Of a stretch of DNA of 64,000 nucleotides, positions 5,975-62,798 are shown piece after piece. A program made the position numbers and the translations under genes. A model generated the notes under the pieces. The model was not told the origin of the DNA. It was given only the letters and a program-made list of their open reading frames with translations, and searched no databases. This stretch comes from an uncultured Isosphaeraceae bacterium. Its GTDB lineage: Bacteria > Planctomycetota > Planctomycetia > Isosphaerales > Isosphaeraceae. The DNA lies in NCBI GenBank assembly GCA_945957605.1, contig CAMFLR010000002.1, forward strand, positions 232,197 to 296,196, in the 5' to 3' direction. The number at the start of each line of letters is the position of its first letter. The stretch's first letter is position 1.

Positions 5975-6234
5975 GGCGAGTAGCCCTTTACAGTCCAAAA
6001 GATTTGCGATGCAACAATATGCAACCGGATCAGGAGCCTGAGTGCTCACATCCTATACACTCTAGAACACTGCCGTAAACACCGGCGCCCGCCAAATCCG
6101 GAACAAACCGCCCGGATGCCCCTGGACGATCTTTCGTGGGGTCGCTACGCTGGGTCCCTGTCGATTGCGCAAAGTGTAATCGGCATCGCTCTCTTACAAT
6201 TGCATTTTTTCGACCCCTCGGGCGTTCGAACGCA

Positions 6235-6440
6235 CTCTCAAGTGCGGCTCGAACAGGAAGCCGGTGCGAATCCGGCGCGGGACCGCCGCTGTAAGCGAGG
6301 AGGACTCGGGACAAAAGGCCACTTCGAGCGTGATGCTCGCGGGAAGGCGTCCCCTGTCCGACTGACTCGCGAGCCAGAAAACGGCCCGATGGGTCTGCCC
6401 TGCTGACGATGCTTCGGACTAAAGCATCCGGGAATCCCGC
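6235..6440 (+). promoter_or_regulatory. Candidate cobalamin (B12) riboswitch in the 5' leader of the DUF1559/PEP-CTERM unit
   Basis: The + strand reads GGAAgccGGTGcGAATCCggcGCgGGACcGCCGCTGTAAGcgAGGAGG...GCCACTtcg at 6257-6330. This matches the conserved cobalamin-riboswitch core (GGTGnnAAnTCC...GCnGnCCCGCCACTGTnA) plus a B12-box-like GCCACT. A downstream hairpin gatgcttcggactaaagcatc at 6407-6428 could be the expression platform. Confidence 0.7.
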
Positions 6441-31447: not shown

Positions 31448-32554
31448 TCAGAGCAAGTTAACAACGCGCTCGGCCAATCCCTTTTCGCCAAGCACGACGT
31501 TCAAATGTCCTGCTGCCGCGATCTTCTCGAGAGCTTCCAGCTCGCGCAGCTTCATAAGCGCAGGGTTGTCGGTAAGCAGCTTCGCCGTATTTGCCTGGCT
31601 GCGCATCGCAGCCGTTTCTTCGCGACGGAAAATCAAGTTTGCCTCGGCCGTCTTGCGGGCCTCGGTCACCTTGTTGAACAGATCCTTCATGTCGCCAGGA
31701 AGAATCACGTCGCGAATGCCGGTTGAAAGCACGAGCAAACCGAGATCGGCTGCACGAGCGCGAAGCGTTTCCTCGGTTTCTCGAGCAACCGCATCCTTGT
31801 CTGCGAGCAACGCGTCAAGATCGCGCACGCCCACAACCGCACGGAACGCAAGCTGAGCTTCGCGATAGAGCGCCTGCTTGGCATCTTCCGTAACGCACGC
31901 AGCACGCTTGGCATCGCCGACACGATACGTCACCTGCGCATTGAGCCGAAGCGTGACCTTGTCCGACGTCATGATCTCCTGACCGCTGATATCGAGCGTC
32001 AATTCGCGCAGGTCGATTTCGACAACGCGTGTATCAGCCACACCACGCCAAAAAGCATAGCGCCCCGGTGCAAGCGTATTCGTGTAATCACCATCGACAA
32101 AAAGAGCCCCGACGCAACCGCGGTTCACCGAGACCAGTTCAAGCGTCGAGTAGACCTGAGGCGCTCGCGCGATCACTTTGAACTGTGGGTGATCGAACCG
32201 AGGCTGCGTCGCGTTGAGGATCTCGATTCGCACGTCGCGCGGATTCGTCCAATACGCGTAGAGGCCAGGCGACAAAATGCCGCTGAAGCGACCATCAATC
32301 CAGACAAGCGCGCGCTGATCGTCCTTGAGGTCGACCATCACGGCAAGCCCCTTGAGTACGCCCGACTTGACGATGAGGTCAAGCTTCTCGTGCACAAGCT
32401 GAGGCGCACGCTGCGAGACCACTTCTACGACGTGGCGTCGGAGTGGGTCGAAAATCCAGTGCGTCCCCTCGTTGAGCAGGCCCTGGAATTCTCCTTCGCG
32501 AAAATGTAGACCTACTTCATAGCTGCGAATCTTGATACGGCGAAGCCGCAACAT
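31448..32554 (-). CDS. SPFH/Band-7 (stomatin/prohibitin-like) domain protein
   Basis: ...DVILPGDMKDLFNKVTEARKTAEANLIFRREETAAMRSQANTAKLL.. is a typical SPFH C-terminal region. Confidence 0.7.
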   Translation of the reverse strand: MLRLRRIKIRSYEVGLHFREGEFQGLLNEGTHWIFDPLRRHVVEVVSQRAPQLVHEKLDLIVKSGVLKGLAVMVDLKDDQRALVWIDGRFSGILSPGLYAYWTNPRDVRIEILNATQPRFDHPQFKVIARAPQVYSTLELVSVNRGCVGALFVDGDYTNTLAPGRYAFWRGVADTRVVEIDLRELTLDISGQEIMTSDKVTLRLNAQVTYRVGDAKRAACVTEDAKQALYREAQLAFRAVVGVRDLDALLADKDAVARETEETLRARAADLGLLVLSTGIRDVILPGDMKDLFNKVTEARKTAEANLIFRREETAAMRSQANTAKLLTDNPALMKLRELEALEKIAAAGHLNVVLGEKGLAERVVNLL

Positions 32555-32933: not shown

Positions 32934-33007
32934 GGTTGTGGACGGGAGTCGAACCCGCTACCTACAGATTCTAAGTCTGTCGCTCTATCCAGGTGAGCTA
33001 CCACGCC
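32934..33007 (-). tRNA. tRNA-like gene with anticodon UAG but a class-I (short variable loop) shape; acceptor stem has two mismatches, so possibly a pseudo-tRNA
   Basis: Sense strand: GGCGTGG TA GCTC ACCTGGATA GAGC G ACAGA CTTAGAA TCTGT AGGTA GCGGG TTCGACT CCCGT CCACAAC. Confidence 0.5.
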
Positions 33008-33147
33008 TACGACATCGCCCCGGTTTTCATTCCATTCACGGAACGCCCTGCGCCAATCGCCAAAAGCGAGGCCGGTACGCCGCTGGCCCGACGATGCCAT
33101 ATGCTCTCTTGCAAAGTTGAGTATGAGAATTCTGATCCTCATACAAG

Positions 33148-33218
33148 AGACGCTGGTGGGAGTCGAACCCACTTCCACCGGGTTGCAGCCGGTTGCCTGG
33201 CCGTCTGGCTCCAGCGTC
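33148..33218 (-). tRNA. tRNA-Cys (GCA)
   Basis: Sense strand: GACGCTG...ACCGG CTGCAAC CCGGT...TGGG TTCGACT CCCA CAGCGTC; perfect acceptor stem. Confidence 0.8.
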
Positions 33219-33234
33219 ATGTTTACGATTTCAA

Positions 33235-33306
33235 TGTCCTCGCCGGGAGTTGAACCCGGTCCTCGACCTTCGCAGAGTCGTGTGCCATCCATCACACCCC
33301 GAGGAC
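33235..33306 (-). tRNA. tRNA-Arg (GCG), an unusual anticodon for bacteria
   Basis: Sense strand: GTCCTCG GG GTGT GATGGATG GCAC A CGACT CTGCGAA GGTCG AGGA CCGGG TTCAACT CCCGG CGAGGAC. Confidence 0.6.
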
Positions 33307-33328
33307 GTGTTTACCCAAACAACGAAAA

Positions 33329-33399
33329 TCCCCCGCCCGGGAGTCGAACCCGGCCTTGCGGCTTCGAACACCGCCGTGCACCCAACACACTCACAGGGA
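33329..33399 (-). tRNA. tRNA-Arg (UCG)-like; G at position 32 and a wobble-rich acceptor stem
   Basis: Anticodon arm GCGGT GTTCGAA GCCGC; T-arm CCGGG TTCGACT CCCGG; acceptor TCCCTGT/GCGGGGG with three G-U pairs. Confidence 0.5.
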
Positions 33400-33400
33400 G

Positions 33401-33472
33401 TACGCCCGCCAGGAGTCGAACCTGGTCCACAACTTGAGAAAAGTCGTGTGCCGTTCGTAACACTCCAAGGGC
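33401..33472 (-). tRNA. tRNA-Arg (UCU)-like; C at position 37 is non-canonical
   Basis: Anticodon arm CGACT TTTCTCA AGTTG; T-arm CCAGG TTCGACT CCTGG; acceptor GCCCTTG/CGGGCGT with one mismatch. Confidence 0.5.
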
Positions 33473-33481
33473 AAAAAACAG

Positions 33482-33551
33482 CAGGAGCGCAAGGATTTGA
33501 ACCCTGTCCGTCCGGGTTGGAGCCGGAGTCCTCTCCCAGGAGGACGCTCCT
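33482..33551 (-). tRNA. tRNA-Trp (CCA) with an irregular D-arm
   Basis: Anticodon arm TCCGG CTCCAAC CCGGA (anticodon CCA); perfect acceptor AGGAGCG/CGCTCCT. The D region forms a 6-bp hairpin GTCCTC-CTGGGA-GAGGAC instead of a canonical 4-bp stem. Confidence 0.6.
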
Positions 33552-33559
33552 GTCATGAA

Positions 33560-34150
33560 TCACGCAAGTGCGAGACTCGGTGCATCATTTACGAATCGCG
33601 ACCAGCTTGCGATCGCACCGTCATGAATTGCGTGGAATGGCTTCCAGTCGGGCCGAGTCGGCCGGCGACGCAAATGCATTCCCGCCTGCTCGGGCGTGCG
33701 GTCTGCCTTGATCGCATTGCACTCCGGGCAAGCCGCCACGCAGTTCAACCAGCTTGATGTACCACCGCGCGATCGCGGAATGATGTGGTCGATGGTGATT
33801 CGATCCCACCCCGGCTGTACGCCGCAATACTGACACGTGTGATGATCGCGCTTGGCGACGTTGCGGCGGCTGAAAGCAACCGCCTTCGAGGGCACACGGT
33901 CATAATGTGTCAAGCATACAACTTCGGGGACTCGCAGACGCCTGTGAGCCGTGCGAATACAAGGAGCATCGAGCGGAGGAGTGAGTTCCGACCATTCGTG
34001 CCAGCCGTAGAGCCGATACTCATCCGGCTCAACGACCTGGGCCGCCTCGTTCCAGAGCATCGTCAGAGCACGAACCACGCTCGTCACGTGGATCGGTTGC
34101 CAATGTCGGTTGAGAACTAGCGTTTGTCGAGCAAGCACATCGGTCGTCAT
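33560..34150 (-). CDS. HNH endonuclease embedded in the tRNA array
   Basis: Track ORF 33560..34387; its first 79 codons merely overlap tRNA-His and tRNA-Ser. The real start is M80 (MTTDVLARQTLVLNRHWQPIHV) at 34150, preceded by GGAGG. The HNH motif is ...HHTCQYCGVQPGWDRITIDHIIPRSRGGTSSWLNCVAACPECNAIK. Confidence 0.75.
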   Translation of the reverse strand: MTTDVLARQTLVLNRHWQPIHVTSVVRALTMLWNEAAQVVEPDEYRLYGWHEWSELTPPLDAPCIRTAHRRLRVPEVVCLTHYDRVPSKAVAFSRRNVAKRDHHTCQYCGVQPGWDRITIDHIIPRSRGGTSSWLNCVAACPECNAIKADRTPEQAGMHLRRRPTRPDWKPFHAIHDGAIASWSRFVNDAPSLALA

Positions 34151-34176
34151 CGAAACCTCCGAGAAACGAAAACCAG

Positions 34177-34249
34177 GGTGCCCGGCGGGAGTTGAACCCA
34201 GCGCCTTGAGATCCACAATCTCATGTGCTTCCGTTACACCACGGGCACC
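34177..34249 (-). tRNA. tRNA-His (GUG) with genomically encoded G-1:C73
   Basis: Sense strand: G-GTGCCCG TG GTGT AACGGAA GCAC A TGAGA TTGTGGA TCTCA AGGCG CTGGG TTCAACT CCCGC CGGGCAC C. Confidence 0.85.
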
Positions 34250-34334
34250 ATCAATACTGAAACGTGTCGAAACCGTAACTCCTTCTACTCTCCACTCTCT
34301 CCGTTCTCCTCTCTCTTCGCCGCAGGCGAAGAAG

Positions 34335-34420
34335 CGGAAGGCAAGGGATTCGAACCCCCATGCCCTTTCGAGCGCACTCTTTAGCAAAGAGGCCCGGCAA
34401 ACCGTATCCGGCTACCTTCC
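34335..34420 (-). tRNA. tRNA-Ser (GCU), class II with a long variable arm
   Basis: Sense strand: GGAAGGT AG CCGG ... CCTCT TTGCTAA AGAGT GCGCTCGAAAGGGCAT GGGGG TTCGAAT CCCTT GCCTTCC G. Confidence 0.8.
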
Positions 34421-34431
34421 GTAAAAACCAG

Positions 34432-34502
34432 TGGACAGCCGGGGAATTGAACCCCGATCTCCTGGGTGCAAACCAGGTGTCTTCCCATTGGACCAGCCGC
34501 CC
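34432..34502 (-). tRNA. tRNA-Ala (UGC) with the G3:U70 identity pair
   Basis: Sense strand: GGGCGGC TG GTCC AATGGGA AGAC A CCTGG TTTGCAC CCAGG AGAT CGGGG TTCAATT CCCCG GCTGTCC A. Confidence 0.85.
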
Positions 34503-34531
34503 ATCCTCATACGATCACACAAACAACCGAA

Positions 34532-34604
34532 TCATCCCGGCAGGACTCGAACCTGCGGTATCCTGCTTGTAGGGCAGGCGTCTTGGCCGCTAGACGACGG
34601 GACG
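34532..34604 (-). tRNA. tRNA-Val (UAC)
   Basis: Sense strand: CGTCCCG TC GTCT AGCGGCCA AGAC G CCTGC CCTACAA GCAGG ATACC GCAGG TTCGAGT CCTGC CGGGATG A. Confidence 0.75.
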
Positions 34605-34697
34605 ATCATTCGCGAGTTGCGGGTTCAGGAGTTGCACCTGAGGACCAGGTTTATGAGACCCAGTTGAGCGCTGGCCCACCCGCAAATTGTATAACAG

Positions 34698-34772
34698 CGC
34701 CCCCGATGGGATTTGAACCCACGGCCTCTACCTTGACAGGGTAGCGAGCACTCCAGACTGCTCCACGAGGGC
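34698..34772 (-). tRNA. tRNA-Asp (GUC)
   Basis: Anticodon arm CTACC CTGTCAA GGTAG; T-arm GTGGG TTCAAAT CCCAT; acceptor GCCCTCG/CGGGGGC; discriminator G. Confidence 0.85.
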
Positions 34773-34801
34773 GAATGATCGATTGACATAGAGTGAGAGA
34801 G

Positions 34802-34875
34802 TAGCCCGAGAGGGATTCGAACCCCCAATGCCCTGCTTCTAAGGCAGGTGGCTTTGCCAGTTAGCCTACCGGGCC
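34802..34875 (-). tRNA. Well-formed class-I tRNA with anticodon UAG (Leu by anticodon, but a short variable loop); atypical
   Basis: Sense strand: GGCCCGG TA GGCT AACTGGCAA AGCC A CCTGC CTTAGAA GCAGG GCATT GGGGG TTCGAAT CCCTC TCGGGCT A. Confidence 0.6.
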
Positions 34876-34887
34876 ATGTTTCGAGAG

Positions 34888-34962
34888 TTCCGGGTGCTGG
34901 AATCGAACCAGCGGCCTCCGCGTTCAGAGCGCGGTGTCACTACCAACAGCAACTGCCCCGGA
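34888..34962 (-). tRNA. tRNA-Gln (CUG)
   Basis: Anticodon arm CCGCG CTCTGAA CGCGG; T-arm GCTGG TTCGATT CCAGC; U1-A72. Confidence 0.8.
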
Positions 34963-35008
34963 TCAAATTTGATAATTCGTGCTTACGCTACTTGAACACT
35001 TCTCAATG

Positions 35009-35084
35009 TTCGGGGAGCAGGAATCGAACCTGCGAACTCCTGATTCAAATTCAGGGATTTCTTACCAACAGAAACTACCCCCGA
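35009..35084 (-). tRNA. tRNA-Gln (UUG)
   Basis: Anticodon arm CCTGA ATTTGAA TCAGG; T-arm GCAGG TTCGATT CCTGC; acceptor TCGGGGG/TCCCCGA. Confidence 0.8.
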
Positions 35085-35085
35085 G

Positions 35086-35158
35086 AGTGCCCTGCGGGAG
35101 TTGAACCCGCCTGTCCGGTTTGGAAGACCGGTGCCTCAAGCCGCTCGGCCAAGGGCAC
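35086..35158 (-). tRNA. tRNA-Gly (UCC)
   Basis: Anticodon arm CCGGT CTTCCAA ACCGG; T-arm GCGGG TTCAACT CCCGC; acceptor GTGCCCT/AGGGCAC; discriminator U. Confidence 0.8.
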
Positions 35159-35177
35159 TTTTTCAATTCAAACAAAG

Positions 35178-35252
35178 CACCGGGGGCAGGAATCGAACCT
35201 ACGAACTCCTCATTAACAGTGAGGCGCATAAACCAGCTTATGCGACCCCGGT
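35178..35252 (-). tRNA. tRNA-Asn (GUU)
   Basis: Anticodon arm CCTCA CTGTTAA TGAGG; T-arm GTAGG TTCGATT CCTGC; acceptor ACCGGGG/CCCCGGT. Confidence 0.85.
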
Positions 35253-35276
35253 ATGGATCGATCTGGCTGAAAGCCA

Positions 35277-35347
35277 AGTGCCCAGCGGGAGTCGAACCCG
35301 CACATCCGCCATGGCAAGACGGTAGGCTACCGCTACATCATGGGCAC
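35277..35347 (-). tRNA. tRNA-Gly (GCC)
   Basis: Anticodon arm CCGTC TTGCCAT GGCGG; T-arm GCGGG TTCGACT CCCGC; acceptor GTGCCCA/TGGGCAC. The D-arm pairing is ambiguous. Confidence 0.7.
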
Positions 35348-35382
35348 GAACGTATTGCAACCTGATTGTCAAAGAAGCCGAG

Positions 35383-35454
35383 AGCACCGGGTGGGACTCG
35401 AACCCACGTTGCCGCATTACGAATGCGGAGTCTTCGCCGCTAGACGACCAGTGC
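35383..35454 (-). tRNA. tRNA-Thr (CGU)
   Basis: Anticodon arm CCGCA TTCGTAA TGCGG; T-arm GTGGG TTCGAGT CCCAC; acceptor GCACTGG/CCGGTGC. Confidence 0.75.
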
Positions 35455-35462
35455 AAGCCGAA

Positions 35463-35534
35463 TGAGACCGGAGGGATTTGAACCCTCACCCCCTGGTTAA
35501 GAGCCAGGCATGCTGCCAGTAACACTTCAGTCCC
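35463..35534 (-). tRNA. tRNA-Lys (CUU)
   Basis: Anticodon arm CCTGG CTCTTAA CCAGG; T-arm GAGGG TTCAAAT CCCTC; D-stem GTGT/GCAT, shared with the other Lys tRNA. Confidence 0.8.
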
Positions 35535-35551
35535 GAACCTATGTGCGTGAG

Positions 35552-35622
35552 TCGGCTCAGGAGGAGTTGAACCTCCGTCTCGCGGTTATCAGCCGCGTGT
35601 TCTGCCGTTGAACTACAAGCCG
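35552..35622 (-). tRNA. tRNA-Ile (GAU)
   Basis: Anticodon arm CGCGG CTGATAA CCGCG; D-arm GTTC AACGGCA GAAC; T-arm GGAGG TTCAACT CCTCC. Confidence 0.85.
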
Positions 35623-35650
35623 GCAGTGCGTCTTTTCGTTGGCCTATAGA

Positions 35651-35722
35651 TGGGGCCGGAGGGATTCGGACCCTCACCAACCGGCTTAAAAGGCCGATAT
35701 GCCGCCGTTACACCACAGCCCC
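35651..35722 (-). tRNA. tRNA-Lys (UUU)
   Basis: Anticodon arm TCGGC CTTTTAA GCCGG; T-loop TCCGAAT; acceptor GGGGCTG/CGGCCCC. Confidence 0.85.
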
Positions 35723-35845
35723 GCATAAGTCTGCATGAGGGCCGCGCGTTTATACCTAATCATGTTCCGCTCCGAATCTGAACTCTTTCTACTCTCCACT
35801 CTCTTCATTCAACTCTCTATTTTTTGACGCAAAAGCGGCAAAAAA

Positions 35846-35919
35846 TCGGGATGGCCGGATTCGAACCGGCGCTCTCCTGCTCCCAAGGCAGGCGGATTAC
35901 CAGACTTTCCTACATCCCG
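35846..35919 (-). tRNA. tRNA-Pro (UGG)
   Basis: Anticodon arm CCTGC CTTGGGA GCAGG; T-arm GCCGG TTCGAAT CCGGC; perfect acceptor CGGGATG/CATCCCG. Confidence 0.85.
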
Positions 35920-35932
35920 TGCAATGAGCGAG

Positions 35933-36006
35933 CAGCCCGTGAGGGAATCGAACCCTGCCTCTCCGCCTTGAAAGAGCGGTGTCCTGAACCGATAGACGAA
36001 CGGGCC
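35933..36006 (-). tRNA. tRNA-Glu (UUC)
   Basis: Anticodon arm CCGCT CTTTCAA GGCGG; T-arm CAGGG TTCGATT CCCTC; acceptor GGCCCGT/ACGGGCT. Confidence 0.8.
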
Positions 36007-36028
36007 ATAGAACCTTCAACGAGCCGAG

Positions 36029-36100
36029 TGGACTGGGTGGCGCTCGAATCCACGTCTGCGGTGCTTCAAACCGCCGCTATACCGTCTCAGCTACCAGTCC
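36029..36100 (-). tRNA. tRNA-Phe (GAA)
   Basis: Anticodon arm GCGGT TTGAAGC ACCGC; D-arm GCTG AGACGGTA TAGC; perfect acceptor GGACTGG/CCAGTCC. Confidence 0.75.
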
Positions 36101-36108
36101 ATTCAAAC

Positions 36109-36142
36109 GAAAAAGGCCCGGCAGTCGCTGTGACGCCGGGCC
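36109..36142 (-). terminator. Rho-independent-type terminator (minus strand) just upstream of the tRNA array
   Basis: On the + strand: aaaaa GGCCCGGC agtcgctgtgac GCCGGGCC, an 8-bp GC stem. On the minus strand it is followed by a U-run. Confidence 0.45.
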
Positions 36143-36175
36143 CGGTCGAACCATTCAAGGTTGATGAGCTGGCAA

Positions 36176-36436
36176 TCACAATCGCAGATTAAACGCGCAC
36201 TCGGGACCCGTCGGTTGACCGTTCAGTCGACCCGCATCATTATGATCTCGGAGGTAACTGGAACGATTCGTTAACACGGCGGCCTCGGTGGTCTTGTAAG
36301 TGATGACTTCGCGTCTGTGCTCAGTGTAGACGCACATCCCTCGCAAGATGTTCGCGCTTTCTCGGCGATTTTTCGCGAATTGTTCGCTCATCGGCTTTTC
36401 GGACTCCTTATGAGGTGAGGAGCCCGAATTCGCCAA
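36176..36436 (-). CDS. Hypothetical small protein (86 aa)
   Basis: ORF only; a co-directional terminator lies downstream; no recognisable domain. Confidence 0.25.
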   Translation of the reverse strand: MANSGSSPHKESEKPMSEQFAKNRRESANILRGMCVYTEHRREVITYKTTEAAVLTNRSSYLRDHNDAGRLNGQPTGPECAFNLRL

Positions 36437-41065: not shown

Positions 41066-41611
41066 TTGGAAATGGGCTCTCTGATTGCCCCGAAATCGCT
41101 TTCGCCAGCTGAAATTGAAATCGTCGAGAAGGTAATCAGCTCGTACCGCCCTTTTTTGTTGTTCATAGCGCATCGCGTTCGAGGGGACCACAAACGCGGC
41201 CTCGAGCATCCTTCCGACGTGGTTCAACGTGCACTTCTGCGTGCGTTCGTCAAAGCGAAGGGCGGCGAGTCGCCCAGGGTAGACGGTGCGGAATTCAAAA
41301 AATGGATTCGCCGATGTCTCTTCAAATCGACAAAGAAAAGCCGGCCGAAGCGATTCGTGCCGATTGACGCAAGTATTATCGACCCAGGTAGTTCTGTTGG
41401 CACCAAGGCTTCACGGCAGGATGAGGTTCTGCGACTCAGCAAGTGTCTGACAAAAATGGATCCAGCCGATCGCCAGCTTTTGCTCTGGCGTTACCAGGAA
41501 GGCTTAACCTGCGAAGAAATCGGCCGACGACGTGGGCACTCGGCGGCATTCGCTAGTAGAGCGACGCGATCCGCACTGATCCGGCTTAAGCATGCGTTCG
41601 CAAACGAGTAA
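41066..41611 (+). CDS. RNA polymerase ECF-type sigma-70 factor
   Basis: Region 2 (..DVVQRALLRAFVKA..) and region 4 HTH (..DRQLLLWRYQEGLTCEEIGRRRGHSAAFASRATRSALIRLK). Confidence 0.8.
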   Translation: MEMGSLIAPKSLSPAEIEIVEKVISSYRPFLLFIAHRVRGDHKRGLEHPSDVVQRALLRAFVKAKGGESPRVDGAEFKKWIRRCLFKSTKKSRPKRFVPIDASIIDPGSSVGTKASRQDEVLRLSKCLTKMDPADRQLLLWRYQEGLTCEEIGRRRGHSAAFASRATRSALIRLKHAFANE

Positions 41612-41827: not shown

Positions 41828-44800
41828 GTGAGCGCATGGTCGGCCCGACATGCGGTTAAGGTCATGGGTGAAGCAAAATCATTCCCGGATGATGAGAGGC
41901 AGCCAACGTCCACACAACGGGATAAGAAAGCAGATACCATGGCTGACCCGTCAAACGGTGGTGACGAAGGCGAGAGCAATGACAAATCCAACTTTGAAGA
42001 ATATGCACAATTTCTCTCACTATTCCGAGAAGCCGCCGGCCGCCCTAGCAGCAGTCCGATTCCAGCCACTCCAGCAGCCTCATCGAGCATCAATGGATCT
42101 TCGCGATTCGAATCGCTTGGCTTGGTAGGATATGGATCATTCGGCGTCGTCTATCGTGTGCGAGACACCGTGCTAGGCGTCGAGCGAGCAATAAAAATCC
42201 CCAGAAACGATCCTCCTCCTAATGCTAAGACACTCGCAACTTTCTTGAATGAAGCGCGAATCGGCTCCAGAATTCATCATCAAAACATCGTCCAAGTTTA
42301 TTGGGCTGATGAAGTCGATTCGCTGCCATTGATTGTGATGGAGTATTGCCCAGACGGCTCGCTGGCAACATGGCTAAAAACGTGGTCCAAGGATGAACCA
42401 CTTCCCGCCCGATGGGTTGCAGAACTCGTCGAATCGATAGCCGCCGGGTTGCAAGAAGCTCATAATAAGAACATATTGCATCGCGACCTGAAGCCCGGAA
42501 ACATCATGCTGGTCCAACAGGCCGGCGACCATAATGGTCTTCCGCGGTTCATCCCCAAAGTCGGCGATTTTGGTTTGGCCAAAGCGCTTGAGACAAACGA
42601 CGATCGCAGCCAAAGCACTTCGCCGATTGGAACGCTTGCCTACATGAGCCCGGAGCAACTCGCTCCGGGTGCGAAAGCGACCACTGCCGCGGACGTTTAT
42701 GCCCTCGGCGTGATCCTTTATGAATTACTGACGCGCCGATTGCCTTATGAAGGAGTCAGCGGCGCACAGCTCGTTTCCAGGATTCAGGACCTGAGTCCGC
42801 CGGTTCGCCCACGCGTTCTACGTTCAATGGACCTGCCCAAAGATCTCGAAACGATCTGCCTTGTCTGCCTCAGACGAGATCCTGAAGCTCGTTATCCATC
42901 CGCGGATTCGCTCCGGCAAGATCTGCAAAACTTTCGGCTGGGCAAGCCAATCAAGCGCCGGCACTACTCTGTGATCAGGCGTCTCTTGCACTGGTCAAGA
43001 GCGCGGCCGTCTCAGTTGTTATCAGTCCTTCTCACGATTCTTTTCATAACGACAGTGATCGCAAGCTGGTCGATCTACATCGCGCAAAGAATCGGTGTCG
43101 AGAGAGAGTCGGCTTCAAGAGCCGATACCGCACGCAAGCTTGAAGAGGCGAGCTCGCAACTAAGACTGCATGACGATATCGCCTCGATACACAACGCAGA
43201 TACCCAAATGCATCTGTCGAATTTTTCACCAGCCCATGCCTTTTTGTCTCAAGTGAACACCAATCGCCTCATTCACGGTTTTCCCTTTCGCTTCGTGGCG
43301 AACAAAACCAAGCCAGACATGGAGTTTCTCTTTCGACTGGATGCAAAACCGACGAACGCGGCATTTTCTCGCGCAGGTGACAAGATCGCCTGGGCAGATC
43401 AAGCCGGAAACATCTACGTGTTAACCGGACTCAAACACAAACGATTGCTCCTCTCGGATCCATCGGTTCAGCCGATCCACTCACTCGTGTTTTCAAATAA
43501 AGGCGAATTGCTAGCGATCCATCGTGGTGACGAACTGTTGCTCGTTGAATTAGCCACTGGAACTTCGCTACCAATTCCCTACACCCAAGATCCTAAATCT
43601 CGCCCCATCTTCCTCGACAGTGATCGAACTCTTGCGGTTTCCGCGCCCCTTAAACAAAGAGTCGGAACTCTTCAACTTATCGATCTCAATCACACTACCT
43701 CGCCTTCACTTGATCGCAAGCTCACTTATCGCGATTGCTTCGCTACATCGCCGGATGGGCGTTACATCGCATATGGGGCTGCAACAGGAAATGACGTTGA
43801 ATTCTTTGAAATGCGGTCAACGCGAACGGGAGTTCGACTCAAAGAAACGGATGGTCAGATCCTCAACATGGCCTTCTCGCCAAATTCATTGAGACTCGCC
43901 GTGAGCCTCAATGAGCCGCGACGAGTCACAATGTTCAACATTGCCGAAGGTAATCCGCGACTCGATTATGTCTCAACGAGCAAATGCTTCTCGAATACTG
44001 ATCGCGAGCTATTCTCGTTCAGCCCTGACTCGGCGGCATGGTTCTTTTTGAATTGTGCGAACGAAATCATCGCGGAATTCTCAGTGCATCACGGCGACGA
44101 ATTGGCTAACCGCGGAGAGCACAGCCGATTGCAATATCGTACATACAACGACAAATGGTTGTCACCACAAACATTTGCACAGAGCAAAACGACGCTCTGC
44201 GCATTCGACCGATCCGGCAGCATCCTCATGGCCTGGGATTCGAATCCACCTGCATTATGCGGCAACCTGATTCGAGACGAGCCGATACCACAGCAAGAAA
44301 AGCCGGTTGCAGGAATTCCATGCTTCTGCCCCAACGGAGGCGACGACACACTTGTATACTTCAGCGAAACCAACATCATTCGCTGGCACTTGAGGCCAGG
44401 TATCCCTCGCCCTGACGTGATTGATGGCGACTCGGAAGAATGGGTGTGGTCCGTAGCAGCATCATCTGACGGAACCTCTTTCGCAAGCGGCGGCGAAGGT
44501 GCGAAACTTAACATATGGGACCTCGCGACGGGCGAACAAACACATACACTTACCGGTCATAACGCATCGGTTGGCGCCATTGATTACAGCCCCGATGGCC
44601 GATTCATCGCCTCGGGAAGTTTTGAGAACAACAATAATCTGAAGCTCTGGAATACCACGACAGGCCACTTCATTCGCGATTTTGTTGGACACACCGACAA
44701 GGTGCGTTCCGTCCATTTCGATCCGTCCGGCCGGTATCTTGCATCAGCCTCGTGGGACCGCTCGGTTCGAGTATGGAACGTTGAAACCGGTAAATGCGTG

Positions 44801-45289
44801 AACGTTCTCGACGGTATGGATTCCAAGGCGATGAACGCCCGATACTTTCCCGACGGCAAGCGCATTCTCGTCTGCAATCAATACGCATTCATATGGGATC
44901 CTTCAACGGGCACACAGATTCCCCTGCTCCCCCGCGAAAAGCACGACGCCTCAGCAATCGCCGTCGGCCCCGATGGAAACACTGTTGCGGTTGGTGACGA
45001 CCAGGGAAATATTGTCCTGTGGGATGCGGATTCCAGAGAGATCATCAACACCATTGGAGGCGCACCAGGAGAATGTCACGCATTGACCTTCACACCAGAT
45101 GGCCAAACGCTTGCCTCCGCATCCATCAATGGGCAGATTGAACTTTGGGACGTTCCCAAGGCAACGCTACTAACCTACTTGAAGGGCCATAAGAACTGGG
45201 CAAATTCGTTGGTGTTTACGCATGACGCGAAGGCGCTTCTCTCTGGTAGCCACGACGGCACGATCCGCATCTGGCGTGCAAGCCGATAG
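41828..45289 (+). CDS. Serine/threonine protein kinase fused to a TM segment and a C-terminal WD40 beta-propeller
   Basis: Kinase motifs GYGSFGVVYRV, AIKIP, HRDLKPGNIML, DFGLAK, GTLAYMSPE. WD40 repeats GHNASVGAIDYSPDGRFIASGS, WDRSVRVWNV, GSHDGTIRIWRA. The start may be internal (MGEAK or MADPS). Confidence 0.85.
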   Translation: MSAWSARHAVKVMGEAKSFPDDERQPTSTQRDKKADTMADPSNGGDEGESNDKSNFEEYAQFLSLFREAAGRPSSSPIPATPAASSSINGSSRFESLGLVGYGSFGVVYRVRDTVLGVERAIKIPRNDPPPNAKTLATFLNEARIGSRIHHQNIVQVYWADEVDSLPLIVMEYCPDGSLATWLKTWSKDEPLPARWVAELVESIAAGLQEAHNKNILHRDLKPGNIMLVQQAGDHNGLPRFIPKVGDFGLAKALETNDDRSQSTSPIGTLAYMSPEQLAPGAKATTAADVYALGVILYELLTRRLPYEGVSGAQLVSRIQDLSPPVRPRVLRSMDLPKDLETICLVCLRRDPEARYPSADSLRQDLQNFRLGKPIKRRHYSVIRRLLHWSRARPSQLLSVLLTILFITTVIASWSIYIAQRIGVERESASRADTARKLEEASSQLRLHDDIASIHNADTQMHLSNFSPAHAFLSQVNTNRLIHGFPFRFVANKTKPDMEFLFRLDAKPTNAAFSRAGDKIAWADQAGNIYVLTGLKHKRLLLSDPSVQPIHSLVFSNKGELLAIHRGDELLLVELATGTSLPIPYTQDPKSRPIFLDSDRTLAVSAPLKQRVGTLQLIDLNHTTSPSLDRKLTYRDCFATSPDGRYIAYGAATGNDVEFFEMRSTRTGVRLKETDGQILNMAFSPNSLRLAVSLNEPRRVTMFNIAEGNPRLDYVSTSKCFSNTDRELFSFSPDSAAWFFLNCANEIIAEFSVHHGDELANRGEHSRLQYRTYNDKWLSPQTFAQSKTTLCAFDRSGSILMAWDSNPPALCGNLIRDEPIPQQEKPVAGIPCFCPNGGDDTLVYFSETNIIRWHLRPGIPRPDVIDGDSEEWVWSVAASSDGTSFASGGEGAKLNIWDLATGEQTHTLTGHNASVGAIDYSPDGRFIASGSFENNNNLKLWNTTTGHFIRDFVGHTDKVRSVHFDPSGRYLASASWDRSVRVWNVETGKCVNVLDGMDSKAMNARYFPDGKRILVCNQYAFIWDPSTGTQIPLLPREKHDASAIAVGPDGNTVAVGDDQGNIVLWDADSREIINTIGGAPGECHALTFTPDGQTLASASINGQIELWDVPKATLLTYLKGHKNWANSLVFTHDAKALLSGSHDGTIRIWRASR

Positions 45290-61076: not shown

Positions 61077-62798
61077 ATGAGTGTTCGACTCTCCCGTGCA
61101 GCGTATGCCAAGAAATATGGCCCGACGACCGGGGACCGAATCCGGTTAGCCGACAGCGAACTCATTATTGAGATCGAAAAAGATTACACCGACTACGGCG
61201 AAGAATCGATCTTCGGCGGCGGAAAGTCGGTTCGCGACGGGCAGGCTCAGTGCTCGTTTGAAGAGCCAATGAGCCCTGCGCACTGCGACCTTGTCATCAC
61301 CAATGCGGTCATCATCGACCATTGGGGGATCGTCAAGGGCGACATCGGAATCAAGCACGGCCGGATCGTGGCGGTCGGCAAGTCCGGCAACCCCAACACA
61401 CAGCAAGGTATCGACCCGCGTCTCGTCATCGGGCCGGGTACCGAGATCATCGCGGCTGAAGGGCGGATTGTCACGGCAGGTGGTGTCGACACGCACATTC
61501 ACTTCATTTGCCCACAGCAAATCGAAACGGCGATTGCTTCGGGCATCACCACGCTGATCGGTGGCGGCACTGGCTCGGCTACGGGCACGTGGGCCACAAC
61601 TTGTACGCCAGGCCCCTGGAACATCATGCGGATGCTTCAGGCATTCGAGGGCCTGCCGATCAACGTAGGCATCCTGGGTAAAGGTAACGGCAGCGTTCAG
61701 AAGCCGCTGATCGACCAGATCGAAGCCGGGGCCTGCGGCCTGAAATTGCACGAAGACTGGGGCACGACGCCGGCCGTCATCGACACCAGCCTGACGGTCG
61801 CGGATGAGTACGATATTCAGATCGCCATCCATACCGACACGCTGAATGAGTCAGGCTTTCTCGCTGACTCAGTGGCAGCGATGAAGGGCCGCACGATCCA
61901 TAGCTTCCACACGGAAGGTGCAGGCGGCGGTCACGCCCCCGACATCATCAGCATCGCTGCGCTGCCCAACGTCTTGCCATCGAGCACGAATCCAACGCGC
62001 CCGTTCACGGTCAACACGATCGATGAACATCTTGACATGCTGATGGTTTGCCATCACCTGTCACGAAATATCCCCGAAGACGTGGCATTCGCCGAAAGCC
62101 GAATCCGCGCCGAGACGATTGGCGCGGAAGACGTCTTCCACGACCGCGGCATCATCAGCATGATGAGCTCTGACTCGCAGGCGATGGGTCGAATCGGCGA
62201 GGCGATCGTTCGTTGCTGGCAGACCGCCCACAAGATGAAAGTTCAGCTCGGCGCACTGGCAACGGATTCTTCACGCAACGATAACGAACGCGTGAAACGG
62301 TACGTCGCCAAATACACAATCAACCCCGCGATTGCTCACGGTATTGGCGACTACGTGGGCAGTATCGAAGGTGGCAAGCTGGCCGACCTCGTGGTCTACA
62401 AGCCCGAGTATTTCGGCGTGAAGCCCGAGTTGATTCTCAAGGGCGGCTTGCTCGTGTCGGCGCAAATGGGCGACCCGAACGCCAGCATTGCCACGCCGCA
62501 ACCGGTCTACCCGCGTCCACAGTTCGCATCTTACGGCCGGGCACTTTCCAAGTCGTGCCTGTCGTTCGTCTCGAAGGCTTCGCTGTCGAAGGGGATCATC
62601 GAAGGGTATGGCCTGCAGCGCGAAGTTGTCGCAGTCGAAAACTGTCGCAAGATCGGTAAGAAAGACATGCGGCGCAACGAGGCAACTCCCGAAATCCGCG
62701 TCGACGCCGACACCTATCAGGTGTTCGTCGATGGGGAAAAGGTGGGCAGCGAGCCGCTTGAGACGTTGCCGATGACCCAGCGTTACTTCCTGTTCTGA
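61077..62798 (+). CDS. ureC: Urease alpha subunit
   Basis: ..[16 protein letters not shown].., ..MVCHHL.. are nickel-binding His motifs. Confidence 0.95.

Follow-up and report, generated by a model that had tools for sequence, protein, structure and literature searches.

A 25-gene accessory tRNA array in an Isosphaeraceae contig lies behind a conserved leader with the features of an attenuator

We analyse a 64,000-nucleotide stretch of DNA from an uncultured Isosphaeraceae bacterium (the window), which carries a long accessory, or "L-type", tRNA array, a locus of a known kind. Ahead of the array we find a leader whose parts, conservation and two competing predicted helices emerge from comparison with related loci (Table 1). 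Our preferred reading, to which we give a probability of roughly 0.6, is that the array sits behind a ribosome-dependent attenuator that would be opened by impaired translation of the leader, with the tRNAs serving as spares under stress and an HNH nuclease gene as a passenger. A conserved leader switch of this type ahead of a tRNA array seems to be new: for the combination of promoter, 33-aa ORF and competing hairpins we found no paper and no Rfam, Pfam or NCBIfam entry.

Table 1. Features of the array and its leader, listed in the direction of transcription (window coordinates; tRNAs in array order).
Feature	Position	Strand	Remarks
ECF-sigma-like promoter motif GAAC-N17-CGTC (GAACATCTTGCGAGGGATGTGCGTC)	36329-36353	-	about 250 nt upstream of tRNA-Phe
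Leader ORF, 33 codons + TGA, (GTG)VLTNRSSYLRDHNDAGRLNGQPTGPECAFNLRL	36176-36277	-	GAGG Shine-Dalgarno at 36283-36286
Putative antiterminator 5' arm (GTGATTGCCAG)	36169-36179	-	includes leader stop TGA (36176-36178)
Small hairpin AACC-TTGAAT-GGTT	36149-36162	-	between stop codon and terminator, inside the antiterminator helix
Intrinsic-terminator-like hairpin (GGGCCCGGCGTC / GACTGCCGGGCC) + T-run	36105-36143	-	ends 4 nt before tRNA-Phe
tRNA block 1, 19 genes	34176-36100	-	ARAGORN, Rfam model; Phe, Glu, Pro, Lys(UUU), Ile, Lys(CUU), Thr, Gly(GCC), Asn, Gly(UCC), Gln(UUG), Gln(CUG), Leu(UAG, 75 nt, without long variable arm), Asp, Met(CAU, 69 nt), Val (C33), Ala, Ser(GCU), His (G-1 encoded)
Purine-rich 41-nt repeat, copy 2	35781-35821		in long Pro-Lys spacer
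Non-canonical CAU-anticodon tRNA, 69 nt	34616-34684	-	3-bp D stem, 6-bp anticodon stem
Purine-rich 41-nt repeat, copy 1	34277-34317	-	in long Ser-His spacer
HNH endonuclease gene, 196 aa	33560-34150	-	between tRNA-His and tRNA-Trp
tRNA block 2, 6 genes	32934-33551	-	ARAGORN, Rfam model; Trp (71 nt, 5-bp D stem), Arg(UCU) (decayed), Arg(UCG), Arg(GCG), Cys, second Leu(UAG)
Probable pseudogene Arg(UCU)	33400-33474	-	broken acceptor stem, altered anticodon loop (C37)

ARAGORN places all 25 tRNA genes of the 64-kb window on the minus strand within 32934-36100 (7.9 genes per kb) and detects none outside this interval. The earlier note had described a dense minus-strand array of 24 genes; the density, strand and gene order hold, but the CAU tRNA was overlooked. 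With 24 different anticodons the array covers 19 amino acids by anticodon rather than the roughly 17 first counted, and tRNA-Tyr and class II Leu are absent from its 25 genes. By the Rfam tRNA model, 20 of the 25 reach the gathering score (30.7-69.1 bits); the five that miss it are Trp, the class II Ser, the CAU tRNA, Arg(UCU) and Arg(UCG). Very short spacers had also been reported, and spacers are indeed 0-45 nt except for three, of 85, 123 and 139 nt, the last of which separates Cys from the terminal Leu(UAG). The long Ser-His and Pro-Lys spacers, where relatives have extra tRNA genes, each hold one copy of the 41-nt repeat; the copies are 85% identical to each other, and the 17-mer core occurs at these two sites only in the window and is confined to this organism's contigs.

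The leader begins with a promoter motif, GAAC-N16-18-CGTC, that is present in 75 of 109 non-redundant related loci, against 0.029 expected per 340 nt as computed from the remainder of the same loci, and in all occurrences but three it lies 249-334 nt upstream of tRNA-Phe. This consensus leads us to infer recognition by an ECF sigma factor. Related loci conserve the upstream region despite differing neighbour genes. Homologues of the leader ORF occur in at least 63 related loci, with a length of exactly 33 aa in 39, and share the consensus ..AGQPAN.LP.(H/Y)PLRL-TGA (the peptide of the window ends in AFNLRL, versus HPLRL). At the codons of the conserved residues Leu26, Pro30, Leu31 and Arg32, third positions change freely, or first positions synonymously, and this variation points to translation of the ORF. 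Its codon adaptation falls in the lowest 4% of windows drawn from genes of this stretch, and it contains no run of one regulatory codon. A simple model of ribosome occupancy neither needs nor explains the conservation of the peptide.

From the stop codon of the ORF onward, sequence comparison points to two helices that would compete for the same RNA. The terminator helix is 95.8% paired in our alignment A3, with 56 cells changed on both sides, and none of 500 shuffles equals it. For the other helix, the segment around the stop codon has its best complement in the 5' arm of the terminator at 52 of 54 loci; this putative antiterminator is 85.1% paired in A3, compared with 25-51% when the register is slid, and carries 22 double changes, which again no shuffle of 500 equals, with the percentage paired rising only from 83.3 to 85.1 in that control. 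A leader stop of TAA in place of TGA goes with U in place of C in the opposite arm, a covariation that amounts to few independent events because the seven TAA sequences are closely related and there are perhaps two or three groups of G-C variants. In the window itself the antiterminator requires a one-base bulge, and its ungapped complementarity (11/16) is no better than that of controls. When the terminator 3' arm is withheld, the antiterminator is the minimum-energy fold. The small hairpin recurs with varying sequence at the same place in the related loci inspected, as judged from single-sequence folds. An nhmmer profile of the 3' part of the leader matches 88 of 113 loci, and the window's copy is the most diverged, at 35.5 bits versus 50-57 for genome-derived relatives (20 for locus L008). 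Because the loci were gathered by a tRNA-Phe pattern, they represent one related family and not independent inventions. The hairpin and T-run had been taken for an insulating terminator. Both are present, but the hairpin is conserved with arrays despite differing upstream genes and is paired with the leader ORF and antiterminator, which argues for a regulator of the array instead of an insulator.

These parts suggest the following working of the locus. The array would be expressed as one minus-strand transcript starting at the ECF-type promoter, and RNA polymerase would pass a 5' UTR of about 70 nt and the leader ORF before reaching the terminator. With prompt leader translation, a ribosome on the stop codon would cover the segment that pairs with the terminator 5' arm, the terminator would form and the array would stay silent. 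If leader translation is slow or blocked, for example by damaged or uncharged tRNAs or by ribosome inhibitors, the antiterminator would form first and RNA polymerase would enter the 25 tRNA genes and the HNH gene. RNase P and a 3' endonuclease, RNase Z for instance, would presumably process the precursor, with CCA added after cleavage since none of the 25 genes encodes it, and the same cuts would free the HNH mRNA with its own ribosome-binding site. The tRNAs so released may serve as a reserve pool of distinct structure, with its short-arm Leu and its compact Trp and CAU members, on which translation could draw under stress.

Now we consider the unusual tRNAs themselves. All the features singled out in the earlier note are there: Arg(UCG) has G32, Arg(UCU) has C37 and an acceptor stem with mismatches, and the D-arm of Trp is odd. 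The CAU tRNA falls under the Rfam threshold in the window and in every relative scanned, and an alignment of 10 homologous genes from related arrays shows compensatory changes in 12 of its 19 pairs; across related arrays the same holds for 11 of 21 pairs in the Trp tRNA, which, like Arg(UCG), is below or at threshold in relatives as well. The short-arm Leu tRNAs form a coherent family of 74-76 nt with anticodons UAA, UAG, CAA, CAG and GAG, that is, every Leu anticodon but AAG. From these alignments, the 71-nt Trp, the 69-nt CAU tRNA and the short-arm Leu are conserved forms with compensatory changes and not products of decay. Arg(UCU) looks like the sole local decay product among the odd tRNAs: it corresponds by position and sequence to a tRNA-Arg(CCG) of related arrays that scores 42-50 bits in loci L005, L006 and L030. 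The proposal that the two halves of the array differ in age does not survive comparison, since the order of the downstream block, Trp-(Thr)-Arg-Arg-Arg-Cys, is kept in other planctomycete families, the odd Trp is compensated and block 1 has non-canonical members too (the CAU tRNA, Val with C33, the short-arm Leu and Gln(CUG)).

The internal HNH gene was correctly recognised: the ORF has a GGAGG Shine-Dalgarno at 34156-34160, starts 25 nt past tRNA-His and ends 8 nt ahead of tRNA-Trp, and its product matches Pfam HNH_5 and HNH at about 1e-13. The CxxC...CxxC motifs, D121-H122, N136 and N145 are invariant in 33 homologues. At the exact His/Trp junction of related arrays the gene is present in 14 loci and absent from 5, and we suggest an optional homing-type passenger that may aid the persistence or spread of the array. 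The link between arrays of this type and horizontal transfer stands, as HNH homologues occur in or beside plasmid arrays and related arrays have 5-40 genes (up to 38 in genomes, 40 in a metagenome contig), varied genomic contexts and two copies in some genomes. Of recent acquisition here there is no sign: the G+C of the array is 0.56-0.58 versus 0.54-0.61 nearby, the flanks hold ordinary chromosomal genes with no integrase or phage genes found, and no close relative of the HNH gene was found in viral contigs.

How else might the locus be read? The leader ORF, promoter and terminator could be a self-contained gene for a 33-aa peptide that merely travels beside the array, which would then be expressed by leaky readthrough or an unrecognised promoter with no sensing of translation. 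The peptide is more conserved than simple ribosome occupancy needs, the terminator is strong (an 11-14 bp helix and a T-run) and the excess of antiterminator pairing over shuffles is small. We nevertheless consider this unlikely, given the in-register, covarying complementarity between stop-codon segment and terminator arm, and because in most loci just 4-25 nt lie between T-run and tRNA-Phe, too few for a separate promoter, and the array strand yielded no sigma-70-like promoter. In locus L012, moreover, the element sits directly ahead of a minimal Arg-Ser-His-HNH unit. That the array is what remains of an old transfer, decaying and composed of pseudogenes without present function, we hold quite unlikely. 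It does have 25 genes versus 33-38 in close relatives, with long repeat-bearing spacers in place of missing genes, a decayed Arg(UCU) and two acceptor-stem mismatches in the terminal Leu(UAG); other genomes retain only 4-12 genes, and Kim et al. chose the name 'degenerate' for such clusters (PMC4807772). Against this, the stems of the odd tRNAs stay paired through compensatory changes across families, most of the window's tRNA genes clear the Rfam threshold, the intact HNH gene has invariant catalytic and zinc-binding residues, and the window retains promoter, leader ORF and both helices.

An ordinary, vertically inherited housekeeping tRNA operon is highly improbable. The same gene order is found in Isosphaeraceae, 'Planctomycetaceae' and Thermoguttaceae genomes, and both G+C and flanks are unremarkable; but Tyr and class II Leu are missing, several members are non-canonical, none scores above about 69 bits, and related genomes have no copy, a remnant or two copies in unrelated contexts. 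In published planctomycete genomes, furthermore, the usual Trp gene belongs to a canonical cluster that is conserved and separate, and the arrays come on top of a base set of about 46-54 tRNAs (PMC4807772). That the array is supernumerary rests on this literature, on the relatives with remnants and on the non-canonical structures. Possible, if doubtful, is a main benefit other than general back-up of translation, namely a putative store of tRNAs that resist tRNA-cleaving toxins or the nucleases of phages or defence systems; being a proposal on function, it can hold together with the attenuator. The array tRNAs deviate in parts that nucleases recognise (the anticodon loops of Val, with C33, and Phe, with G37; the missing long arm of Leu; compact D-arms), similar short-arm Leu tRNAs occur elsewhere (see below), mycobacterial arrays have been discussed as a putative anti-defence system (PMC12803027) and a known defence system cleaves the variable loop of tRNA-Tyr (PMC13096335). 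On the other side, no tRNA nuclease or defence system was identified adjoining the array, and the PADLOC matches of the HNH protein span the generic HNH core only.

The general type of the array has precedents. An array with an internal protein gene had been thought new for a Planctomycetes-type genome. However, HNH and other protein genes inside tRNA arrays were already described (PMC5966550, PMC8421152), Planctomycetes are among the phyla listed with arrays (PMC4758250, PMC8421152), and 'degenerate tRNA gene clusters' of 2-28 genes were reported from Planctomycetes in 2016 by Kim et al. (PMC4807772 main text and S2 text), supernumerary and with low-scoring tRNAs (S2 text). The HNH protein of the window is a full-length homologue of those encoded beside or inside the trn operon of a Nostoc plasmid and the array of Mycolicibacterium pCBMA213_1, and both the Nostoc array and cyanophage S-CRM01 have short-arm Leu tRNAs similar to those of the window. 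In Anabaena, the L-array and its HNH gene are silent, and translation inhibitors induce both (PMC8421152).

ARAGORN places 25 tRNA genes between 32934 and 36100 of the 64-kb window, every one on the minus strand, and no tRNA gene outside that interval. The density is 7.9 genes per kb (25 in 3,167 bp), and the 24 distinct anticodons stand for 19 amino acids, without Tyr. We thus find, as the earlier note had proposed, a dense minus-strand array with an internal protein gene that Pfam assigns to HNH_5/HNH. The order and identities given there are correct, although a CAU tRNA was missed, and its broad amino-acid coverage stands at 19 counted by anticodon instead of about 17. With the Rfam tRNA model, 20 of the 25 genes score above the gathering threshold (30.7-69.1 bits), and the five that do not reach it are Trp, Arg(UCU), Arg(UCG), the CAU tRNA and a Ser of class II. 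The 3' CCA is encoded in none of the 25 genes, tRNA-His has an encoded G-1, and the spacers measure 0-139 nt. Terminator-like sites with a good T-run number five between the genes against 4.2 expected, none of them beyond chance, and neither ARAGORN nor Rfam (E up to 10) detects tRNA-like sequence in the 139 nt that separate Cys from the last Leu(UAG). A purine-rich direct repeat of 41 nt (85% identity, core GAGAGTGGAGAGTAGAA) occupies the two longest spacers of block 1, exactly where related arrays hold extra tRNA genes. It is confined to contigs of the window's organism and may be the footprint of deletions or of a small insertion.

Coordinates of features in the window and, where an L-number is given, in related or compared loci
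Feature	Position	Strand	Description
Promoter motif	36329-36353	minus	GAAC-N16-18-CGTC match
Leader ORF	GTG 36277 to TGA 36176	minus	VLTNRSSYLRDHNDAGRLNGQPTGPECAFNLRL, 33 codons; GAGG 5 nt 5' of GTG
Block 1, genes 1-7 (5' to 3')		minus	Phe(GAA), Glu(UUC), Pro(UGG), Lys(UUU), Ile(GAU), Lys(CUU), Thr(CGU)
Block 1, genes 8-14		minus	Gly(GCC), Asn(GUU), Gly(UCC), Gln(UUG), Gln(CUG), Leu(UAG), Asp(GUC)
Block 1, genes 15-19		minus	Met(CAU), Val(UAC), Ala(UGC), Ser(GCU), His(GUG); then HNH ORF
HNH ORF	34150..33560	minus	196 aa; GGAGG 5 nt 5' of ATG
Block 2, 3' of HNH ORF		minus	Trp(CCA), Arg(UCU), Arg(UCG), Arg(GCG), Cys(GCA); 139 nt; second Leu(UAG)
CAU tRNA	34616-34684	minus
tRNA-Val(UAC)	34531-34605	minus
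Arg(UCU)	33400-33474	minus
Terminal Leu(UAG)	32934-33007	minus
Short-arm Leu tRNAs	window 34801-34875; L005 4495-5179; L087 8079-8153; L089 4088-4162 and 8632-8705
41-nt direct repeat	34277-34317 and 35781-35821	minus
Band_7/SPFH genes	window 31448-32554; L017 8314-9399; L088 11475-12359	minus (window)
Paired arrays of L103	4821; 12167	opposite strands
ECF-type sigma factor gene	41066-41611	plus
Ser/Thr kinase gene	41828-45289	plus	1153 aa, WD40 repeats
Cobalamin riboswitch	6203-6403	plus	Rfam RF00174, 84.8 bits
5_ureB_sRNA match	61254-61530	minus	Rfam, full length, 81.5 bits

We use comparisons among related arrays to ask what lies ahead of the first gene. When the 330 nt 5' of tRNA-Phe are aligned for seven arrays from different families, the region is conserved even though the genes upstream of it differ. 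For a wider sample, the tRNA-Phe pattern of the window array was run against metagenome contigs, which yielded 120 loci (113 with at least 340 nt upstream; 109 non-redundant) that make up one related family. Four elements recur 5' of Phe: a promoter motif, a short ORF, a small hairpin, and a GC-rich hairpin followed by a T-run. With a profile of this leader region, 88 of the 113 loci give a match on the array strand; in L012 the match stands directly ahead of a minimal Arg-Ser-His-HNH unit. The profile has no match in the Nostoc or Mycolicibacterium arrays. No Rfam family reaches the gathering threshold on the leader region, where a search up to E = 10 returns only a chance-level 16-bit match to SorX, and our literature search found no paper that combines tRNA arrays with leader peptides. 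As far as the literature and databases searched show, a module of promoter, leader ORF and putative attenuator ahead of tRNA arrays has not been described so far.

The promoter motif, GAAC-N16-18-CGTC with the extended consensus GCGAACC...GCGTCTA, is present in 75 of the 109 loci. All occurrences except three fall 249-334 nt upstream of Phe, and the remaining sequence of these loci gives a chance expectation of 0.029 per 340 nt. An AAC in the -35 element together with a CGT in the -10 element at such spacing is the usual signature of promoters read by ECF sigma factors. Judged by a -35 with AAC, a -10 with CGT and a spacing of 16-17, we infer from the consensus a promoter of the ECF-sigma type. 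Clustering the ORFs of all loci reveals no sigma factor gene conserved next to the arrays.

Homologues of the leader ORF are found in at least 63 loci, where they start 48-113 nt past the promoter motif, are 33 codons long in 39 of 63 cases (31-37 in the others) and have a Shine-Dalgarno-like motif ahead of them in 39 of 63. The consensus peptide, M..(R)SS...ER..G.(F/L)AGQPAN(T/S)LP.(H/Y)PLRL, has TGA as its stop codon (TAA in one subgroup) and no match in Pfam or NCBIfam. Conserved residues are written with different synonymous codons: CCG, CCA, CCC and CCT for Pro30, CGC, CGG and CGA for Arg32 (whose first two bases are invariant), CTC, CTG, CTT and CTA for Leu26, and TTG and CTG for Leu31. 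This synonymous variation points to selection on the translated product or on its translation. It is important to note that the pattern is limited to the conserved codons; over the whole ORF the variability of the three codon positions is flat (0.54, 0.48, 0.54), because the N-terminal half is poorly conserved. The codon adaptation of the leader falls in the lowest 4% of windows from genes in the 64-kb window. The ORF holds no run of a single codon, and its C-terminal (H/Y)PLRL-stop is conserved.

Between the leader ORF and tRNA-Phe lies a terminator, a GC-rich hairpin of 11-14 bp with a T-run that ends 4-25 nt before tRNA-Phe in most loci, and 4 nt before it in the window. We aligned 54 sequences that extend from 15 nt 5' of the leader stop codon as far as the T-run. 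The terminator helix is 95.8% paired in this alignment (slid registers reach 32-52%) and 56 cells have changed on both sides, a number equalled in 0 of 500 shuffles. The segment around the stop codon (consensus G-TGA-CACC.GG) is in turn complementary to the 5' arm of the terminator plus two loop bases, and in the same alignment this antiterminator helix is 85.1% paired against 25-51% for slid registers, with 22 double-changed cells that 0 of 500 shuffles reach. Where the subgroup uses TAA as its stop, the partner changes from C to U (GC:38, AU:7), and a second pair reads AU:24, GU:14, GC:8; the covariation of this helix represents few independent events. We also employed an alignment-free test, which uses a single-hairpin filter and looks for the ungapped complement of a 16-nt stop-codon window. 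The best complement lies 0-3 nt from the start of the terminator in 52 of 54 loci, and the window pairs at 12.5 of 16 positions on average, compared with 9.6 for control windows inside the ORF. In folding, once the 3' arm of the terminator is made unavailable, the minimum-energy structure is the antiterminator enclosing the small hairpin (mean -24.7 kcal/mol), and in some loci the antiterminator is the global optimum even without that constraint.

Taken from sequence, the anatomy of the leader is most likely that of a ribosome-dependent transcription attenuator, with a predicted ORF that has a start and a ribosome-binding site, an intrinsic terminator and a competing antiterminator. The hairpin upstream of Phe had been read in the earlier note as an insulating terminator; we find instead that it belongs to a conserved control region, where it is paired with a leader ORF and an antiterminator. 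In the mechanism that we propose, a ribosome at the leader stop codon would cover the 5' strand of the antiterminator, the terminator would form, and transcription would end just before tRNA-Phe. If translation of the leader lags or fails, the antiterminator would form once the 5' arm of the terminator emerges, and polymerase would enter the array. The conserved C-terminal motif might, more speculatively, slow termination and so hold the ribosome until polymerase is past the terminator, and the leader peptide itself may be a sensor. An ECF-type promoter would add a second, stress-linked layer of control. Beyond the leader, the tight spacing and the missing CCA suggest, from established tRNA processing, a single precursor that RNase P and a 3' endonuclease would cut, freeing the HNH mRNA, with its own ribosome-binding site, between tRNA-His and tRNA-Trp. 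The attenuator predicts an array that is off in healthy growth and on under translational stress. To the fuller reading, in which the leader ending in (H/Y)PLRL-stop is an arrest or slow-termination peptide and, together with the antiterminator and the ECF-type promoter, forms a regulon of spare tRNAs that senses translation capacity, we give a probability of roughly 0.4. The window's own copy is the most diverged of the family: its profile score is 35.5 bits, its antiterminator is weaker and contains a bulge, and its peptide ends in AFNLRL. With a diverged leader, lost genes and at least one pseudogene, this copy may be less functional than the family.

Now we consider whether the odd tRNAs of the array are products of decay. 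Cloverleaf drawings contain each feature that had been named from the sequence: Arg(UCG) has G32, Arg(UCU) has C37 and mismatches in its acceptor stem, and the D-arm of Trp is unusual. These features had been taken to suggest that the two halves of the array differ in age or selective constraint. The drawings further reveal a C at position 33 of Val, a G at position 37 of Phe and, in the 69-nt CAU tRNA, a very small D-arm. In a ten-locus alignment, however, the 71-nt Trp keeps a 5-bp D stem abutting the acceptor stem, with compensatory two-sided changes in 11 of 21 pairs, and in the CAU tRNA a D stem of 3 bp and an anticodon stem of 6 bp persist across relatives, with 12 of 19 pairs compensated. 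When four related arrays are scored against the Rfam threshold, Arg(UCG) and the CAU tRNA fail in all of them and Trp in three (in L006 it passes barely, at 31.8 bits), and no tRNA there scores above 67 bits. We therefore read the sub-threshold scores of Arg(UCG), the CAU tRNA and Trp as family traits, and because the odd tRNAs are conserved in relatives, the idea of two ages is unsupported. Decay is probable in Arg(UCU) alone, whose counterpart by position and sequence is the Arg(CCG) of L005, L006 and L030 (42-50 bits): compared with these, the window gene has lost acceptor pairing and 4 of 7 loop bases are altered, and it is probably a pseudogene. The G32 of Arg(UCG) is specific to the window's lineage.

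Both tRNAs with a UAG anticodon are only 74-75 nt long and so are without the long variable arm of bacterial tRNA-Leu. Across the arrays, short tRNAs with Leu anticodons (74-76 nt) form a coherent family with A73, a Leu-like D-arm and the anticodons UAA, UAG, CAA, CAG and GAG; among array Leu tRNAs a long arm occurs only in some CAG genes, while Ser and Tyr retain theirs in the same planctomycete arrays. Short-arm Leu-like tRNAs are also present in the Nostoc plasmid array and in cyanophage S-CRM01. By these comparisons most of the odd tRNAs are not products of decay, and several are non-canonical designs that have been conserved. The terminal Leu(UAG) has two acceptor-stem mismatches and no counterpart 3' of Cys in other arrays. 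Its D-arm is an ordinary class I arm, unlike the array's Leu family, and the gene could be an old junction or what is left of an attachment site. A separate observation concerns position 33, which is almost universally U in tRNAs. The tRNA-Val(UAC) of the window has C33 there, yet scores 59 bits, and since the Val genes of L005, L006 and L030 have U33, this change is lineage-specific.

The HNH gene starts 25 nt 3' of tRNA-His and ends 8 nt 5' of tRNA-Trp, and its product matches HNH_5 (5.5e-14), HNH (9.3e-14) and also HNH_4 in Pfam. Eight residues of the catalytic core and the zinc-binding cysteines (C106, C109, C141, C144, D121, H122, N136 and N145) are invariant across 33 homologues. An AlphaFold2 model built from the 33 homologues has a mean pLDDT of 56.8, with 36-60 over the N-terminal 100 residues, a quality too low for a fold comparison, and matches in the PDB (IscB, Cas9, 4H9D) and in PADLOC (PtuB, Cas9) cover the HNH core only. 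Relatives in the protein collection number more than 7,900, matches among plasmids and phages lie on replicons known for tRNA arrays, and a scan of viral contigs returns no close relative. The gap between His and Trp is 4-17 nt in the 5 loci where HNH is absent and 608-1954 nt in the 14 where it is present. Presence or absence at a fixed junction, together with the invariant residues, fits a homing-type element. The HNH-less junctions of L111, an array of 35 tRNAs with His and Trp adjacent, and of four other loci would be natural empty sites. Identity among planctomycete families is 60-75%, which is above expectation for a purely selfish gene and suggests that HNH also benefits the array.

How did such an array come to stand where it does? 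The window is part of a 774-kb metagenome contig (ENA ERZ12289964), and for comparison we scanned one genome per species with the HNH protein, which gives 80 loci that were each run through ARAGORN. The order Phe-Glu-Pro-...-Ala-Ser-...-His, HNH, Trp-(Thr)-Arg-Arg-Arg-Cys is common to Isosphaeraceae, 'Planctomycetaceae', Thermoguttaceae and other Planctomycetota, with an HNH homologue of 60-70% identity again about 25 nt 3' of tRNA-His and 5' of tRNA-Trp. Sizes among genome loci range from 4 to 38 genes, and one metagenome contig reaches 40. The largest genome arrays, L005 and L006, hold 37-38 genes including Tyr, several Ser and five Leu anticodons, and L007, L009, L010, L012 and L022 hold only 4-12. 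Against this background the window's array appears to be a reduced version from which about one third of its relatives' genes are gone. One genome carries two arrays (L015 and L017, contig JAXGXG010000001.1). The two arrays of L103 lie on opposite strands, and each of such paired arrays has its own predicted attenuator.

This distribution bears on three accounts of origin. A locus universal and syntenic in the order, which the earlier note had named as the finding that would argue for an ancestral array, agrees with the recurrence of one gene order in several families, but the arrays are neither universal nor set in shared flanks: array sizes vary, some close HNH homologues stand without tRNAs around them, and no array lies near the farther planctomycete homologues (54-59%; in Schlesneria, Thermogutta and Blastopirellula) or near almost any homologue outside Planctomycetota. 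When flanks are compared, by tblastn of the window's neighbours and by all-against-all clustering of ORFs, a Band_7 gene after the L017 array is the sole shared gene, and the remaining clusters are out-of-frame translations of tRNA and HNH DNA. The patchy distribution and different contexts that we find are a mark of transferred L-arrays. We reject a prophage or integrative element for this window, and a recent import likewise: the Pfam scan of the flanking ORFs returns Band_7, Rrf2, DUF1559, an RND transporter, a sugar aminotransferase, a beta-lactamase-fold protein, a Ser/Thr kinase and an ECF sigma factor, with no integrase, transposase or phage gene; the G+C of the array region (0.56-0.58) is near that of its surroundings; and HNH has no close viral relative. 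The picture that we favour from these comparisons is of a unit that has been at home in the phylum for a long time, where it moves to new sites, is duplicated, loses genes and is itself lost. That the array is supernumerary is supported indirectly by its non-canonical structures, by relatives with remnants only and by published planctomycete counts (PMC4807772).

Several features around the array deserve mention in their own right. The Band_7/SPFH gene 3' of the array lies on the same strand, and the gene 3' of the L017 array is 65% identical to it; Arthrobacter phage Atuin has a 'band-7-like' membrane protein 5 kb from an HNH homologue. Band_7 beside arrays may be coincidence. The ECF-type sigma factor gene and the WD40-repeat kinase gene stand 5 kb upstream of the array, where G+C is lower (0.50-0.53 between 40 and 46 kb), and the kinase has strong but generic kinase matches in PADLOC (mad6, PD-T4-6). 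We considered the sigma factor as a dedicated regulator of the array, a role that is unsupported, as a homologue is absent near other arrays; for neither gene did the other loci reveal a link to the array. Farther off, the window contains a cobalamin riboswitch and a match to 5_ureB_sRNA. The latter family is antisense over the Helicobacter urease gene ureB, so the match is probably conserved ureB coding sequence read on the other strand, not an sRNA.

Long tRNA arrays are widespread, little has been established about what they are for and how they are controlled, and the only worked example is that of Anabaena. If the fuller reading with an arrest peptide is true, this would be the first leader-peptide attenuation of tRNA genes, and a second, independent route, besides Anabaena TrcR, that couples 'cryptic' tRNA arrays to translational stress. 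An array gated by translation of the leader ORF would read the state of the translation machinery directly, and the idea of a spare tRNA set for translational stress or tRNA damage would gain support in an unrelated phylum and through another mechanism. The conserved peptide ending at the stop codon is a candidate new arrest peptide, and the element, at about 250 nt, is compact and makes regulation of the array directly testable. The conserved non-canonical designs, including a whole set of short-arm Leu tRNAs, also correct the view of planctomycete cluster tRNAs as simply degraded.

Comparison with known systems begins with the definitions in use. The array, with 25 genes at 7.9 per kb, falls within the definition of a tRNA array unit, at least 20 tRNA genes and at least 2 per kb (Tran et al. 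2016, PMC4758250), and Planctomycetes are among the phyla in which arrays have been recorded (PMC4758250, PMC8421152). L-arrays are described by one orientation, operon-like closeness, supernumerary genes, patchy occurrence, an all8564-type HNH gene and induction by stress (Santamaria-Gomez et al. 2021, PMC8421152). Our array shares with them, and with the Anabaena PCC 7120 trn operon, genes on one strand at operon-like spacing (a predicted operon), a high gene density, near-complete amino-acid coverage, patchy distribution, variable content and an HNH of the same family. The HNH gene is conserved beside L-arrays and co-induced with the Anabaena array (PMC8421152). Over residues 5-167, the window's HNH is 35% identical (E = 9e-31) to a gene of Nostoc plasmid pNsp_d that stands directly 5' of a 24-gene array of the Anabaena trn-operon type. 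Both arrays have a short-arm Leu tRNA; the gene orders are unrelated, and HNH is upstream there, whereas it lies inside the window array, between His and Trp. The Anabaena array is off in healthy growth and on under translational stress or translation inhibition, through the repressor protein TrcR on direct repeats (PMC8421152, PMC10272220), while the window offers an ECF-like promoter and a putative leader-peptide attenuator.

Of the protein genes in mycobacterial arrays, none is found more widely than HNH (Morgado and Vicente 2018, PMC5966550), and on Mycolicibacterium plasmid pCBMA213_1 a full-length homologue (38% identity, E = 4e-32) sits inside a run of 29 tRNAs, so that a same-family HNH is embedded between tRNA genes here as well. 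These arrays differ in gene order, in class II Leu tRNAs, in a commonly associated XRE-type regulator and in plasmid or phage carriers, and the leader profile finds no attenuator of the planctomycete type in them. The homologues at the Nostoc and Mycolicibacterium arrays agree with the view of an accessory-type array with HNH, but the novelty claimed for an internal protein gene falls to precedents (PMC8421152, PMC5966550, PMC4807772): the association of arrays with HNH is already published in the first two, and such a gene is not unprecedented in general. In the same phylum, 'degenerate tRNA gene clusters', which hold 2-28 genes and have low scores in covariance models, were reported from many planctomycete genomes, additional to a conserved canonical cluster with the usual Trp gene, and were inferred to be dispensable and acquired (Kim et al. 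2016, PMC4807772). Size range and lower scores agree with ours; Kim et al. read the scores as degradation, whereas here the odd structures are conserved with compensatory changes, and the HNH gene is absent from their main text and leader and attenuator are unmentioned.

Genes for nucleases among phage tRNA genes (T4 SegB; mycobacteriophage HNH) resemble the window's HNH in being present or absent at one fixed junction, SegB being a GIY-YIG enzyme, and the two phage loci that we inspected (Arthrobacter phage Atuin, cyanophage S-CRM01) have distant HNH homologues in or next to tRNA gene regions. With the trp, his, pheL and antibiotic-sensing uORF attenuators, the leader shares a short ORF, a terminator before the regulated genes and an alternative helix that would depend on ribosome position. 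In the classical trp model, a ribosome that has reached the stop codon of the leader hides the strand needed for the antiterminator. The conserved C-terminal motif right before the leader stop resembles the termination-arrest peptides TnaC and SpeFL. The classical attenuators control genes of amino-acid biosynthesis or resistance, whereas tRNA genes would be controlled here, by a leader that has no run of a single codon.
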